This document shows, one piece after another, positions 47,327 to 50,897 of a DNA stretch of 64,000 bases. A program made the position numbers and the translations under genes. The notes beneath the pieces were generated by a model. That model was not told where the DNA came from. It worked only from the letters and a program-made list of their open reading frames with translations, and did not search any database. The stretch's first letter is position 1, and each line of letters begins with the position of its first letter. Source of the stretch: a bacterium (GTDB taxonomy: Bacteria > UBA8248 > JACPRG01 > G963555815); assembly GCA_965218795.1 (NCBI GenBank), contig OZ244653.1:896001-960000 (forward strand). The letters run 5' to 3'.

Positions 47327-48355
47327 ATGAAAGCCGCCATCTTTCACGAGCACGGGGGGCCTGAGAAGCTCCTTTACGAGGACTACGATCCCCCCGCGAC
47401 TGGACCGGGCGACGTCATCGTCCAGGTCAAGGCCTGCGGGATGAACCACGTCGACCTGCTCCTCCTCGACGGCCGATACCCGCCGCCGGGCGGCCTGCCG
47501 CACATCAACGGCTGCGAGGTGGTGGGGCTGATCTCCGAGGCGGGTGACGGCGTTACAAACGTCAAAGCAGGAGACCGGGTGATCGTCTTTCCCGGCTTTT
47601 CGTGCGGGAAGTGCGAGTACTGCCTGAAGGGCGAGCGCACGGTCTGCCTGAAATACGGTTACCTGGGCGCGGCGCGCCACGGCGGGTACGCGGAGCTCGT
47701 CAAGGTTCCGGCCGAGAACTGCGTCCCCCTGACCGAAAAAATATCGGACGCGGACGGCGCGGCCATCCCCCTCGCCTTCCTGACTTCCTGGCACGCCCTC
47801 TTCGCCCAGGCCGGGCTCGCGCCCGGGGAATGGGTTCTGGCCCAGGCGGGCGGCAGCGGCGTGGGCAGCTCGGCCATCCAGATCGCCAAGCTGGTCGGGG
47901 CCCGCGTGATCACTACCGTCGGGTCGGACGAGAAGGCCGAGTTCGCCCGCTCCATCGGCGCGGACCACGTCATCAACTACAAGACGCAGGATTTCGTGAA
48001 AGAGACCCGGCGGATCACAGGCAAGCGCGGCGTGGACGTCCTCATCGAGCACATCGGGGACGAAACGTTCGAGAAGAGCATCTACTGCCTGAACCGGATG
48101 GGCCGGCTGGTGAGCGTGGGTTCGCACGGCAATCACTGGGCCCGGATGGACCTGCGGCATGTCTACATGAAGAACCTTCGGATCTTCGGGACCAACCTGG
48201 GGAGCATCCTCGAGCTCAGGACGATTCTGGAATACCTGGAATCCGGTCAGCTCAAAGCCGTCGTGGACACCCGCATCCCCCTTTCAGACGCCCGGGACGC
48301 TGTCCAGTACCTGATCGAGCGCAAGAACAAAGGGAAGGTGATTCTGGTTCCGTAA
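47327..48355 (+). CDS. MDR-family (quinone-reductase-like) oxidoreductase with structural Zn site
   Basis: CGKCEYC..C structural Zn, AGGSGVGS, GKVIL; catalytic Zn Cys replaced (MNHVD). Confidence 0.9.
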   Translation: MKAAIFHEHGGPEKLLYEDYDPPATGPGDVIVQVKACGMNHVDLLLLDGRYPPPGGLPHINGCEVVGLISEAGDGVTNVKAGDRVIVFPGFSCGKCEYCLKGERTVCLKYGYLGAARHGGYAELVKVPAENCVPLTEKISDADGAAIPLAFLTSWHALFAQAGLAPGEWVLAQAGGSGVGSSAIQIAKLVGARVITTVGSDEKAEFARSIGADHVINYKTQDFVKETRRITGKRGVDVLIEHIGDETFEKSIYCLNRMGRLVSVGSHGNHWARMDLRHVYMKNLRIFGTNLGSILELRTILEYLESGQLKAVVDTRIPLSDARDAVQYLIERKNKGKVILVP

Positions 48356-48728
48356 CCCCGACTCGACCCGGCAACTCAGATATACAACCCGTTTTCCCGC
48401 TCGGGTACTCACGCTTCAGATAGGGAAGACTATCCCATGACAATCACCTGGAGGTAGACTTTCTCGTCCCCGCCGCCGGTTGTCCCAATCCGTCGGGCCG
48501 TACCGCCGTTCGCACATCCAAGCACCCGAAGTGCTTTTGAGAAAACTCAGATGGCCTTGCTTCGCAGGAGAGAAACATCTTGCTTTACAATCTGTTATGT
48601 GACTCGCACCCTAACCGCTTCGTCTCCTTCCAAACCTCGAACCCGTTGCGCTTTCAGGACACCGCCTCAGCCCAAATGGTCCCCGATCAGCAAACGTTCC
48701 ACAAGGCGGTCGATTGTTCAAACGGCGA

Positions 48729-48798
48729 TTATACCCTTGACGCACCCGGCCACTAGATGTAGGATTTCAGCCCACGAAGGCCAGATCACAAGATGTAG
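48729..48798 (+). repeat. Left copy of ~70-bp inverted repeat: promoter TTGACG-N17-TAGGAT plus two NrdR-box-like motifs
   Basis: TTATACCCTTGACGCACC...CACTAGATGTAG...CACAAGATGTAG; matches the reverse complement of 49420-49487 (17/18 at the start, last 12 nt identical). Confidence 0.75.
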
Positions 48799-48856
48799 CG
48801 ATTGACAAGCCAGCCTCCCCTGCCTGAAACTGAAGCCTCCTTTTCACATTCTTTGA

Positions 48857-48932
48857 TGGAGCCCCGGAGGGGATTCGAACCGAGACCTCGTACCTTGCAG
48901 GGGACGCGGTCTTGCCGTTTGACCACGGGGGC
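48857..48932 (-). tRNA. Non-canonical or degenerate tRNA-Cys(GCA)-like gene
   Basis: 76 nt: GCCCCCG-TG-GTCAAACGGCAAGAC-CGCGTCCC-CTGCAAG-GTACG-AGGT-CTCGG-TTCGAAT-CCCCT-CCGGGGC-T-CCA. It has U8, D-loop GG, TTCGAAT, U73 and CCA, but the T-stem pairs at only 2 of 5 positions and the anticodon stem is irregular. Confidence 0.7.
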
Positions 48933-48936
48933 TCCG

Positions 48937-49248
48937 TCAAGTAACTTCGAAGTAAAAATTACATTTAGAAGTGATTTTCTCCATTCTCGGTTTCCCTTTG
49001 ACAGGTTCGAATTCACTTTCAATCCCGTCAATTTCGATAGAGATCCATGGTGACTTCTCAATGGCTGCGTCTAGGTCCGCCTTTTTCCATTCACGAAGCA
49101 TCTCTTTCAGCATTAGCTTGACTTCATCCTTCCCTGCAACCGATATTTTGCACGTAGTACAATACAAACGAATTATCTTACCCTCCGGTTTATCCACATT
49201 CACTTTGAAGCGGCAATGTCCACAAAATATCCGATCAATCAGGCTCAT
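48937..49248 (-). CDS. Small hypothetical zinc-ribbon protein (CxxC-17-CxxC), AT-rich
   Basis: AGGAG RBS 7 nt before ATG; CGHC and CTTC; composition unlike the flanking genes. Confidence 0.7.
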   Translation of the reverse strand: MSLIDRIFCGHCRFKVNVDKPEGKIIRLYCTTCKISVAGKDEVKLMLKEMLREWKKADLDAAIEKSPWISIEIDGIESEFEPVKGKPRMEKITSKCNFYFEVT

Positions 49249-49276
49249 TTTGCGCTCCTAGGACGCACCTATCCTG

Positions 49277-49305
49277 TTGACATGGGTGGTGGGATTTGCT
49301 AAAAG
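49277..49305 (+). promoter_or_regulatory. Candidate sigma70 promoter firing antisense to the islet leader
   Basis: TTGACA-N17-TAAAAG with TG extension. Confidence 0.45.
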
Positions 49306-49419
49306 GAGGGTGCCAACCCGTTCCTCACAGCAACCCCCCAAGGTTCCCTTGGGGTTCCAGCCCTACGAGATTCAACCTACACCCAATGACGGGAAGTGGT
49401 CAAGCGTTTGGTGGCTGAT

Positions 49420-49487
49420 CTACATCTTGTGGTCAGCCGATATGAGGGCGGGATCTACATATGGGGGCTGGTGCGTCAAGTGTATAA
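49420..49487 (-). repeat. Right copy of ~70-bp inverted repeat (TTGACG promoter plus two NrdR-box-like motifs)
   Basis: Minus strand TTATACACTTGACGCACC...CCCATATGTAG...CACAAGATGTAG. Confidence 0.75.
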
Positions 49488-49583
49488 CTCCGATTTGTTT
49501 CCCCCTCCCCGTATGCTACAACTGAGCAGTCTCGATTTACGCTTTTTATCATTGTACGAACCAGTCGTGGGGGGAGTGCGGCC

Positions 49584-50897
49584 ATGGAGCTGTCGAAGGA
49601 CGAATCACGCCTGCTGAAGTGGATCGACGACCACAAGGATGAGGCCACCCAGCTGCTCAAAGACCTGATCCGAATCCCCAGCCCGACCGGCGAGGAAGGA
49701 CCCGGCCAGGAGTTCGTCACGAAGTATCTCTCCGACATGGGGCTGGAGATCGAAACCCTCGTCGGCGACATGGACGCCCTCAAAGACCACCCCGAGTTCA
49801 TCCCCGTGGACCCGGAGATCAACGTCGGCAACTACGAAGAGCGTCCCAACGTCATCGGCACGTACAAGGGCGGGGACGGCGGAAAATCCCTGCTCCTGTT
49901 CGCCCACATCGACACCGTCCCGCCCGGCGACGGCTGGGATTACGACCCCTACGGCGCCCAGATCGACGACGGACGGATGTACGGCCGGGGCACGGCCGAT
50001 ATGAAAAGCGGCATGGCCGCCGCGTTCTTCTCCCTCAGAGCCTGCCTCGAAGCCGGACTGCGTCCCAAGGGCGACGTGGTCTGCATGAGCAACATCGAAG
50101 AAGAAATCGGCGGAAGCGGCGGCATTCTCGCCTGCATCGAGGGGGGCTACCGCGCGGACGCCTGCATCTATCCCCACCCGGGCGAGGGAAAGCCCCCGCT
50201 GGTGATGATCGCCTCATCCGGCGTGCTTTCCTTTCGCGTGAAGGTGCAGGGGCAGACCGTCCACGGCTTCCAGGCCCACGTGGGCGTCAACGCCATCGAA
50301 AAGGCCTTCCTCATCGCCGAGTCCCTGTGGGAGCTCGACCGCCGTATCGGCGTGACCTCGCGCGAGGAGTTGACCGAGGCGGCGTATTACACCAGCGGGC
50401 GTCCGGTGCGGGCGGCGAACCTCTACATGAGCGCCCTCCACGGGGGCGGATGGCTTTACCAGGTCCCCCCGTCGTGCGAGATGGACTGGGTCTACACCTT
50501 CCCCAACAACGAGACCCTGGAAGAGAACCGCGCGCGAATCGAGGAAACCGTCAAGGCCGCGGCCGCGGCCGACCCCTGGCTGCGGGAACACCCGCCCGAG
50601 TTGCAATGGCTGCCCGTGAAGTTCAGCCCGTCCCGGGACGATCCCGGGCATCCTTTCATCCAGCTGTCTCAGGAATGCGTAAGCTTCGCCAGCGGAACCG
50701 AGGCCCCGATGGTCGCGAATCCGGTGGGGAGCGACACGCGGGTCCCCGTCCTCTACGGGAAGATCCCCACGGCCAACATCGGACCTCTGGGCGAGAACGG
50801 ACACGCGCCCAATGAGTGGATGGATCTTGATTCTTACTTTGTATCCATTAAAATGTTCTCTCTTATCCTCGCACGCTGGTGTGGTATCGCAACTTGA
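49584..50897 (+). CDS. M20 family ArgE/DapE-like deacylase
   Basis: AHIDTV, GRGTADMKSG, EEEIGG, GVNAI, GHAPNE. Confidence 0.9.
   Translation: MELSKDESRLLKWIDDHKDEATQLLKDLIRIPSPTGEEGPGQEFVTKYLSDMGLEIETLVGDMDALKDHPEFIPVDPEINVGNYEERPNVIGTYKGGDGGKSLLLFAHIDTVPPGDGWDYDPYGAQIDDGRMYGRGTADMKSGMAAAFFSLRACLEAGLRPKGDVVCMSNIEEEIGGSGGILACIEGGYRADACIYPHPGEGKPPLVMIASSGVLSFRVKVQGQTVHGFQAHVGVNAIEKAFLIAESLWELDRRIGVTSREELTEAAYYTSGRPVRAANLYMSALHGGGWLYQVPPSCEMDWVYTFPNNETLEENRARIEETVKAAAAADPWLREHPPELQWLPVKFSPSRDDPGHPFIQLSQECVSFASGTEAPMVANPVGSDTRVPVLYGKIPTANIGPLGENGHAPNEWMDLDSYFVSIKMFSLILARWCGIAT

Follow-up and report, generated by a model that had tools for sequence, protein, structure and literature searches.

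Mobile insertion cassettes and the islet studied here

Derivatives of insertion sequences that have lost the transposase and carry cargo are termed mobile insertion cassettes (MICs) in PMC3129680, and MIC231 of Bacillus cereus, derived from IS231, is one such cassette (De Palmenaer et al. 2004, cited in PMC3129680). Insertion sequences with passenger genes blur the boundary to transposons (PMC3129680), and members of the IS1595 family usually have 8-bp duplications at their flanks, as stated in the part of PMC8101967 that concerns them. Here we analyze a 769-bp islet in a bacterial DNA stretch of 64,000 nucleotides (the window: contig OZ244653.1, positions 896,001 to 960,000 of the forward strand), in which two mutually inverted cassettes enclose an open reading frame (ORF) of 103 codons (ORF103) and a tRNA-like sequence. 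Judged by its sequence, the islet is very probably a non-autonomous DDE transposon of the MIC kind with ends of the IS1595-family type, the cassettes being its terminal inverted repeats.

A non-autonomous mobile unit had been one option in an earlier reading of the locus (the original prediction), and it is supported by multiple copies, by 8-bp duplications around sister copies, by varied cargo and by strain breakpoints at the ends. IS1595-family insertion sequences, including 'transporter IS' forms with passenger genes, were reportedly described by Siguier, Gagnevin and Chandler in 2009. Sister copies of the islet have the 8-bp duplications of this family, passengers lie between the ends, and the ends resemble in part those of an IS1595 element in the same genome, with an equal 12-nt offset to CTTGAC. 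The islet differs in having no transposase, and we found the full two-motif cassette in no element that bears one.

Common to the islet and MICs are insertion-sequence terminal repeats around unrelated passengers, the lack of a transposase inside, a presumed mobilization in trans and several cargo versions. The islet differs from MIC231 in its ends, which are of the IS1595 type with 8-bp duplications and not of the IS231/IS4 type, and from MICs in repeats of ~75-80 bp, inside each of which a 13-nt motif occurs twice, and in a cargo that includes a tRNA or tRNA relic. The element is a rare lineage of a known kind; less usual about it are the length of the ends, the two repeats inside each of them, and a tRNA or its relic as cargo. 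What looked like a unique "regulatory islet" thereby becomes recognizable as a class, the transposase-less cassette on IS1595-type ends. The earlier remark that no element of such architecture had been described was too strong, as MICs and IS1595 elements with passengers are described in the relevant parts of PMC3129680 and PMC8101967.

Layout of the islet

Coordinates are those of the window unless a genome is named. G000 is the genome that contains the window (a single contig of 5.17 Mb, 60.5% G+C), G004 is a related genome (6.2 Mb) of the same family but another genus, and c3 is a third, diverged element in G000. The parts of the islet are as follows.

48724-49492 (769 bp): whole islet; alternative left end 48723.
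48724..48798, plus strand: left terminal inverted repeat; 12 terminal nt, CTTGAC, then motifs at 48750-48762 and 48786-48798.
48737..48765, plus strand: predicted inward sigma-70-like promoter in the left repeat; TTGACG, 17 nt, TAGGAT; 9/12 in a consensus scan.
48799..48852, plus strand: subterminal region; TTGACA ... GAAACTGAAGC; common to the left end of c3 and, in part, to the left end of a G004 element.
48857..48932, minus strand: degenerate tRNA-like sequence; 76 nt in cloverleaf register, ends UCCA.
48937..49248 including the stop codon, minus strand: passenger ORF, 103 aa (ORF103); N-terminal CxxC...CxxC zinc ribbon, then a helix.
49249..49419, minus strand: leader, 171 nt, from the right repeat to the ORF; weak promoter-like site and G+C-rich hairpin, by eye.
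49420..49492, minus strand: right terminal inverted repeat; motifs at 49420-49432 and 49455-49467, CGTCAA at 49474-49479.

The original prediction had bounded the two cassettes at 48729 and 49487. The pair itself, with TTGACG and two motifs in each member, stood in a repeat search and on reading of the sequence, but its limits did not: the true ends lie at 48724 (or 48723) and 49492. Each of the mutually inverted cassettes (~75-80 bp; 48724-48798 and 49420-49492) contains TTGACG and two 13-nt motifs of the type CCAC-N3-ATGTAG, ~35 nt apart. The repeat search paired the arms 48729-48751 and 49465-49487 (23 nt, 87% identity) as well as 48784-48798 and 49420-49434 (15 nt, 93% identity), and the two ends of the islet are identical at 18/24 of their outermost nucleotides. 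As had been predicted, no transposase or integrase domain was found inside the islet, either in the ORF list or in a Pfam scan; the only long ORF is ORF103, a cargo gene with no link to transposition and no similarity to the one IS1595 transposase compared.

Copies and cassettes in the same genome

Repetition of the cassette in G000 is far above chance, as the 12-mer CACAAGATGTAG was found nine times against ~0.3 expected. Full cassettes account for eight of the nine occurrences, and the remaining one belongs to a degenerate end that resembles a cassette (1747228-1747311). The search for cassette and islet in this genome and its relatives, which had been proposed as a check, yielded seven G000 sites at which the whole cassette could be aligned, a second islet copy, and dozens of cassette sites in G004. 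Beyond the islet copies and c3, cassettes are found at G000 1660375, 1316143, 1745477 and 1566578. In the alignment of the seven cassettes, ATTATAC-N-CTTGAC is followed by the first motif, ~22 variable nucleotides and then ACCACAAGATGTAG.

The second copy of the islet (G000:3051287-3053403) shows 99-100% identity over the whole islet and is flanked on both sides by the 8-bp direct repeat GTTTCTTC. Its ORF is split by a 1334-bp insertion (L003:1863-3196 = G000:3051649-3052982) with a 3-bp duplication, which we assign to the IS3 family because HTH_Tnp_1 and rve proteins are encoded in it. The diverged element c3 (G000:384261-385105; L004:1497-2341) has the same inverted cassettes at both ends around a different interior, namely a tRNA(GCU) and, on the opposite strand, a 66-aa two-helix membrane ORF. 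Similarity between the left end of the islet and that of c3 (G000:384265-384390, 83% identity) continues beyond the cassette.

Cargo at the other sites is different again. A methyltransferase-like gene and a 250-aa gene lie between the cassette at 1745477 and its degenerate partner at 1747228-1747311 (G000:1745465-1747311). The cassette at 1660375 is followed by homologues of a 213-aa/106-aa gene pair also seen in G004 and by a 171-aa gene (G000:1660375-1661800); no partner cassette was found for it within the searches made.

These observations bear on the reading that had been preferred in the original prediction, in which both cassettes are co-regulated promoters under one operator, the right one producing a leader-ORF-tRNA transcript and the left one an antisense RNA, as a sense/antisense RNA switch or a small toxin module. 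The left cassette does contain an inward sigma-70-like match, the repeated motif is common to both cassettes, and ORF103 is small, A+T-rich and an orphan, as are many toxins of mobile origin. We nevertheless hold such a switch or toxin module to be very unlikely. The same cassettes occur around unrelated cargo, and some of them had no partner end within the searches made, which implies that the architecture belongs to the vehicle and not to this gene pair. The left cassette is the only one that passes the sigma-70 consensus scan, the right one falling below its threshold, as does the weak promoter-like site noted by eye in the leader (TTGACC 49403-49398, 18-nt spacer, TAGGTT 49379-49374). No regulator gene is linked to the islet, ORF103 has no PADLOC, Pfam or PHROG match, and in the single RNA run (X15) no contig lies over the islet. 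A dedicated twin promoter/operator is therefore unsupported.

Related elements in G004

Among 60 relatives, the cassette was found only in G004, where it is present in many copies. Cassettes bound a 908-bp element there that occurs 11 times, with 99.7-100% identity among its copies. Perfect 8-bp direct repeats flank 6/11 copies (ATTTCAAT twice, ATTTTTTT, ATTTTTAA, AAATGATT and GAAAAAAA). Two of the 11 (L039 and L040) have reciprocally exchanged flanks, GTTTTTTC and ATCATCCT, and three have flanks that are common to each other as reverse complements. Such exchanged and reverse-complement flanks are as expected from recombination between copies, leading to inversions or translocations in G004, so that the copies also drive rearrangements. 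Copies that carry one another's duplications, directly or as reverse complements, are L039, L040, L018, L037 and L042.

Other G004 elements differ in size and content. L027 is a 1.2-kb cassette-bounded element with the 213-aa and 106-aa gene pair. L025 (3.2 kb) has a gene that resembles a DNA methyltransferase by eye, and is broken by another insertion sequence. L024 (2.6 kb, cassette-bounded) has the duplication CTTGGATT. L029 (1.7 kb) has the duplication GTTTGATT and encodes a 295-aa protein that matches the PADLOC candidate PDC-S42 at 2.8e-8. Overall, methylase, restriction-like, toxin-antitoxin-like and defense-candidate genes are found between cassette pairs. The family is thus an example of cassettes that shuttle small cargo within and between related genomes, including restriction-modification genes, methylases, toxin-antitoxin-like pairs, a defense candidate and tRNA genes. 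Since gene callers report such elements only as hypothetical genes, the ~75-bp ends are useful as an annotation marker.

Relationship of the ends to the IS1595 family

An apparently intact, transposase-bearing element of the IS1595 family is present at G000:4625867-4628208 (L082:1249-3590), with the duplication TTTCCTTC and terminal ends of 30 nt at 87% identity. Its transposase (294 aa, G000:4626095-4626979) matches DDE_Tnp_IS1595 (PF12762) at 2.3e-37 and Zn_ribbon_IS1595 (PF12760) at 1.5e-13; G000 has two other candidate transposases of the family. Two passenger genes read inward from the end opposite the transposase. The product of one has 144 aa and two DksA/TraR zinc fingers, and that of the other has 228 aa and is membrane-like. 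Of the two ends of the element, one is turned toward the transposase gene and the other toward the passengers.

The islet ends match this element at 17-18/24 outer nucleotides at one end and at 15/24 at the other, and they match an IS1595 element nested in a G004 element at 15-17/24. For the 908-bp element of G004, the match to the ends of G000:4625867-4628208 is 19-21/24. In 13/13 ends compared, the terminus lies 12 nt before [C/T]TTGA. From the outer matches and the common 12-nt offset, the cassettes are read as IS1595-type ends.

The following mechanism would fit this assignment. An IS1595-family DDE transposase supplied from elsewhere in the cell would bind each end at its outermost ~24 nt and at both CCAC-N3-ATGTAG repeats, and would move the unit in trans with an 8-bp staggered cut. 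The TTGAC within each end may serve as the -35 element of an inward promoter. In transposase-bearing relatives, such promoters would point to the transposase gene from one end and to passenger genes from the opposite end. In the islet, a derivative that would have lost the transposase gene, the right end and the weak internal promoter may transcribe ORF103 and the tRNA-like sequence, and the left-end promoter would be a leftover that reads antisense to the latter.

Other strains and the weighing of the transposon reading

Contigs of four public runs were compared over 47900-50300, X15 being the only RNA run. Contigs from runs X8 and X9 (4714 and 4680 nt) begin their match to the right flank precisely at 49493, immediately beyond the last base of the element, and extend 140 and 107 nt further in sequence unlike the window (record coordinates). 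No contig of these two runs covers 48710-49357, although lack of cover is not evidence of absence. Run X7 contains diverged copies, with flanks that change at 48723 and 49488. One X7 contig joins 48881 to 49329, a variant without the ORF region; the joint is a skip and not an inversion.

The last result, together with the copies above, argues against an invertible segment acting as a phase-variation switch, and the related idea of an inert phage or island remnant fares no better; both are extremely unlikely in our view. Inverted repeats do bound a segment of ~620 bp (inner ends), and its G+C content is foreign. However, the orientation of the interior relative to the two slightly unlike ends is constant in 11/11 copies of G004 and in both copies of G000 (13/13), which contradicts the invertible unit suggested earlier; orientation variants, which were to be looked for, were absent from all 13 copies. 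No recombinase ORF was seen in 6.5 kb around the islet, where ORFs were judged by eye with no family scan. As regards a remnant, the islet has no match in 50,697 phage or 72,556 plasmid records. The 8-bp duplications favor transposition over either idea.

Several findings weigh against a mobile cassette with IS1595-type ends. A target duplication is missing at the copy in the window, where GTTCAAAC borders the left end and ATTTGTTT the right. On the left side, contigs of other strains match to 48383, not to 48723, and then diverge; the 340 bp at 48384-48723 are likewise specific to the window strain. The missing duplication and the strain difference on the left together suggest a later rearrangement beside the element. 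No clean empty site was recovered from the contigs of other strains, and synteny of the flanking genes could not provide one either, as the two genes are not adjacent in the five relatives searched and lie on different contigs in G004 and G006. There is also no evidence of transcription or of present-day mobility for the islet.

Further points of this kind concern the transposase. In neither G000 nor G004 did we find a transposase gene enclosed by two full two-motif cassettes, and the inner motif pair is absent from every transposase-bearing element found. Likeness to the ends of such elements is confined to the outer 24-39 nt (15-18/24), and the closest G000 transposases share only 37-40% identity with the G004 one. 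A 4.1-kb composite in G004 (L026) was considered as the autonomous parent and rejected. Its transposase (PF12762 1.2e-39, PF12760 2.8e-9) starts 50 bp behind one cassette and belongs to a nested element (L026:1521-4440; 2920 bp), which contains the IS1595-family transposase and a GmrSD/HNH gene between perfect 23-bp ends with the duplication ATAAAAAA. L027 is the same host element without the nested insertion and reveals the empty site. A second copy of the nested transposase, 100% identical, lies in a 1945-bp fragment without cassettes.

Finally, the distribution is narrow. An exact scan for the two-motif cassette covered 185,579 species, each represented by one genome, and found 23 stretches, of which 19 belong to the G004 assembly. 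The four elsewhere do not look related, two being chance-like and one lying between ybaB and recR, so that the cassette was found only in G000 and G004 among these genomes. Metagenome scans yielded no relatives among 136 pattern stretches matched with the ORF103 alignment, and no cassette among six stretches found with a 19-nt subterminal word.

ORF103 is a passenger

The earlier description of an AT-rich 103-aa ORF with two CxxC pairs, a good ribosome binding site and a leader of ~170 nt agrees with our data: AGGAG precedes the ATG by 6 nt, CxxC occurs at residues 9-12 and 30-33, the leader measures 171 nt, and the G+C content of the ORF region is ~44-47% versus 60.5% for the genome. The protein is nearly an orphan. 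Only two full-length relatives, both metagenomic, emerged when 5.8 billion proteins were searched with a word index and 1.84 billion representatives were scanned in full with HMMER; one has 98 aa and 72-73% identity, the other 102 aa and 41% identity. The only other close match was the truncated second copy in G000. All four Cys residues are invariant in the alignment of the relatives. There was no significant match in Pfam (best E = 0.078), PHROG (best 0.11) or PADLOC, the best score in a protein atlas was 0.89, to unnamed clusters, and the AlphaFold2 model was poor (mean pLDDT 52.9).

In IS1, the promoter lies partly within the terminal repeat, and the InsA repressor, a small zinc-finger protein, is encoded just inside the end. 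The islet is similar in having a predicted promoter embedded in an end and a small zinc-ribbon ORF near an end. It differs in that ORF103 is unlike the IS1595 transposase compared and is absent from other cassette-bounded elements. An InsA-like truncated transposase was rejected for ORF103 on these grounds (BLASTP E = 21 versus the IS1595 transposase), and it also has no similarity to the IS1595 zinc-ribbon Pfam model. Linkage of the ORF and tRNA to the cassette, proposed as a check at homologous loci, is seen in the second copy in G000, with the ORF split by IS3. As ORF103 is absent from all other cassette-bounded elements examined, it is not the regulator of the family; it is a passenger.

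The tRNA-like sequence and the c3 tRNA

Downstream of ORF103 the original prediction had placed a tRNA-Cys-like gene. Its position was correct, as the tRNA-like sequence begins 1-4 nt past the ORF103 stop codon, but its identity as a tRNA did not hold. ARAGORN reported no tRNA in the whole window, and none even in low-threshold mode, and the Rfam tRNA model gave no match at E <= 10 over 48300-49900. In a hand-built cloverleaf running from 48932 to 48857, the acceptor has 6/7 pairs, the D stem 4/4 and the T stem 2/5, a bulged U interrupts the five-pair anticodon stem, and 5 nt make up the variable region. The 7-nt loop CCUGCAA, in the only cloverleaf register, has UGC rather than GCA as its anticodon, and position 33, where U33 is universal, is a C. 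The energy of this cloverleaf is -16.3 kcal/mol versus a minimum free energy (MFE) of -28.1, which is 12 kcal/mol better; the MFE fold is a long central hairpin within an extended end helix. When flanks are included, this longer end helix spans 48853-48940 and overlaps the ORF103 stop codon.

In c3, by contrast, a tRNA with a good cloverleaf occupies the same place in the same orientation; it is called by ARAGORN and scores 49 bits with the Rfam tRNA model versus a gathering score of 29. Its anticodon is GCU, its variable loop is short and its U73-CCA end is encoded; a Ser anticodon without the long arm is odd. Both RNAs share flanks that extend the helix (TTGAC...ATCAA), and compensating changes distinguish their acceptor helices (CC/GG for the window RNA, GGGG/CCCC for c3). 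The element c3 sits ~200 bp upstream of canonical tRNA-Gly and tRNA-Cys genes. Neither the c3 tRNA nor the window sequence was found in the 60 relatives, the c3 search matching only the neighboring canonical tRNA-Cys and tRNA-Gly.

Features of a canonical tRNA gene (recognition by a model, a 7-bp acceptor, a 5-bp T stem and U33) are missing from the window sequence. Irregular tRNAs and allo-tRNAs are linked to transposon and toxin-antitoxin genes in the parts of Mukai et al. (Nucleic Acids Res 2017, PMC5389517) that discuss them. There, an allo-tRNA pseudogene with several disrupted pairs overlaps a transposon-related ORF, and some such RNAs are suggested to be unused in translation (PMC5389517). 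As far as those parts go, our case is similar in that a non-canonical or decayed tRNA-like sequence lies on or beside mobile DNA. It differs from the allo-tRNAs described there in that the window RNA, with folds read by hand, has neither a 12-bp acceptor branch in an 8/4 or 9/3 arrangement nor a long variable arm (an 8-bp end helix can be drawn, but no 4-bp T stem abuts it), and in that ARAGORN and Rfam give the c3 tRNA the usual 7/5 cloverleaf. The tRNA-like sequence is, from these comparisons, most likely a relic, a decayed copy of a tRNA gene that was carried by an ancestor of the islet and c3.

Alternatively, the cargo could be the point of the element, which would then deliver a functional tRNA-like RNA, either alone or along with the zinc-ribbon protein; this is compatible with a mobile cassette. 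The RNA could be a non-canonical decoder, a decoy or replacement in the face of tRNA-cutting defense nucleases, or a 3'-end processing or stabilizing structure for the ORF mRNA. Evidence for a functional cargo includes the Rfam-passing tRNA at the same place and orientation in c3, and the compensating acceptor changes and common flanks of the two RNAs. An X7 contig also retains 48818-48881, that is, the subterminal region and the 3' acceptor/T part of the tRNA-like sequence, while its remainder differs. Defense-type genes occur in other cassettes (the nested GmrSD/HNH gene, methyltransferases and the PDC-S42-like protein at 2.8e-8), and irregular tRNAs beside transposon and toxin-antitoxin genes are on record in the portions of PMC5389517 mentioned. 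On the other hand, the window RNA has only 2/5 T-stem pairs, an anticodon-stem bulge and C33, is not matched by ARAGORN or Rfam, and its cloverleaf lies 12 kcal/mol above the MFE. The two genome copies are identical and hence uninformative on selection, the ORF is destroyed by IS3 in one of them, and neither tRNA is found in the 60 relatives. On balance, a functional cargo appears unlikely.

A more elaborate version is that the left end, the subterminal region and the tRNA or tRNA-like sequence with its extended acceptor helix form a working module that spreads non-canonical tRNAs or tRNA mimics between genomes. Such a module might alter decoding or shield host or element from tRNA-targeting nucleases, with ORF103 as the partner of the RNA; we consider this improbable. 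The RNAs concerned would be a GCU-anticodon tRNA lacking the long arm required by Ser tRNAs and a tRNA mimic with a long central hairpin. If the c3 tRNA(GCU) or the window mimic were active, small cassettes would be a route for the spread of odd decoders or tRNA decoys.

Among host tRNAs, tRNA-Thr(GGU) gave the best global alignment to the tRNA-like sequence (a stretch of anticodon stem, variable loop and T loop), but it was not convincing as the origin. No GGAGCC...GGCTCCA unit with both conserved flanks was found in G000 beyond the three known. ARAGORN also reports six odd 'tRNAs' elsewhere in G000 (256424, 2822551, 3751553, 3898388, 4234820 and 4616140), which are 71-92 nt long with mismatched stems or long extra arms. 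Some or all of these are probably false calls, a doubt raised by the call at 4234820, which falls within a 358-aa ORF.

Neighboring sequences

The immediate neighbors of the islet resemble a dehydrogenase gene and a peptidase gene by eye, and the one 173-nt contig of RNA run X15 (49723-49895) lies on the peptidase gene. Within the leader, 30 nt (49347-49376) match G000:3572085-3572114 at 97%; the matching site is ~1 kb from another IS1595-family transposase gene (3573053-3573985) and beside the apparent tail of a small duplicated gene. In the left flank, ~140 bp (48570-48707) have two further copies in G000 (2773649 and 2579900) at 76-82% identity and are also matched by short contigs from other strains, and they may represent another small repeat family.

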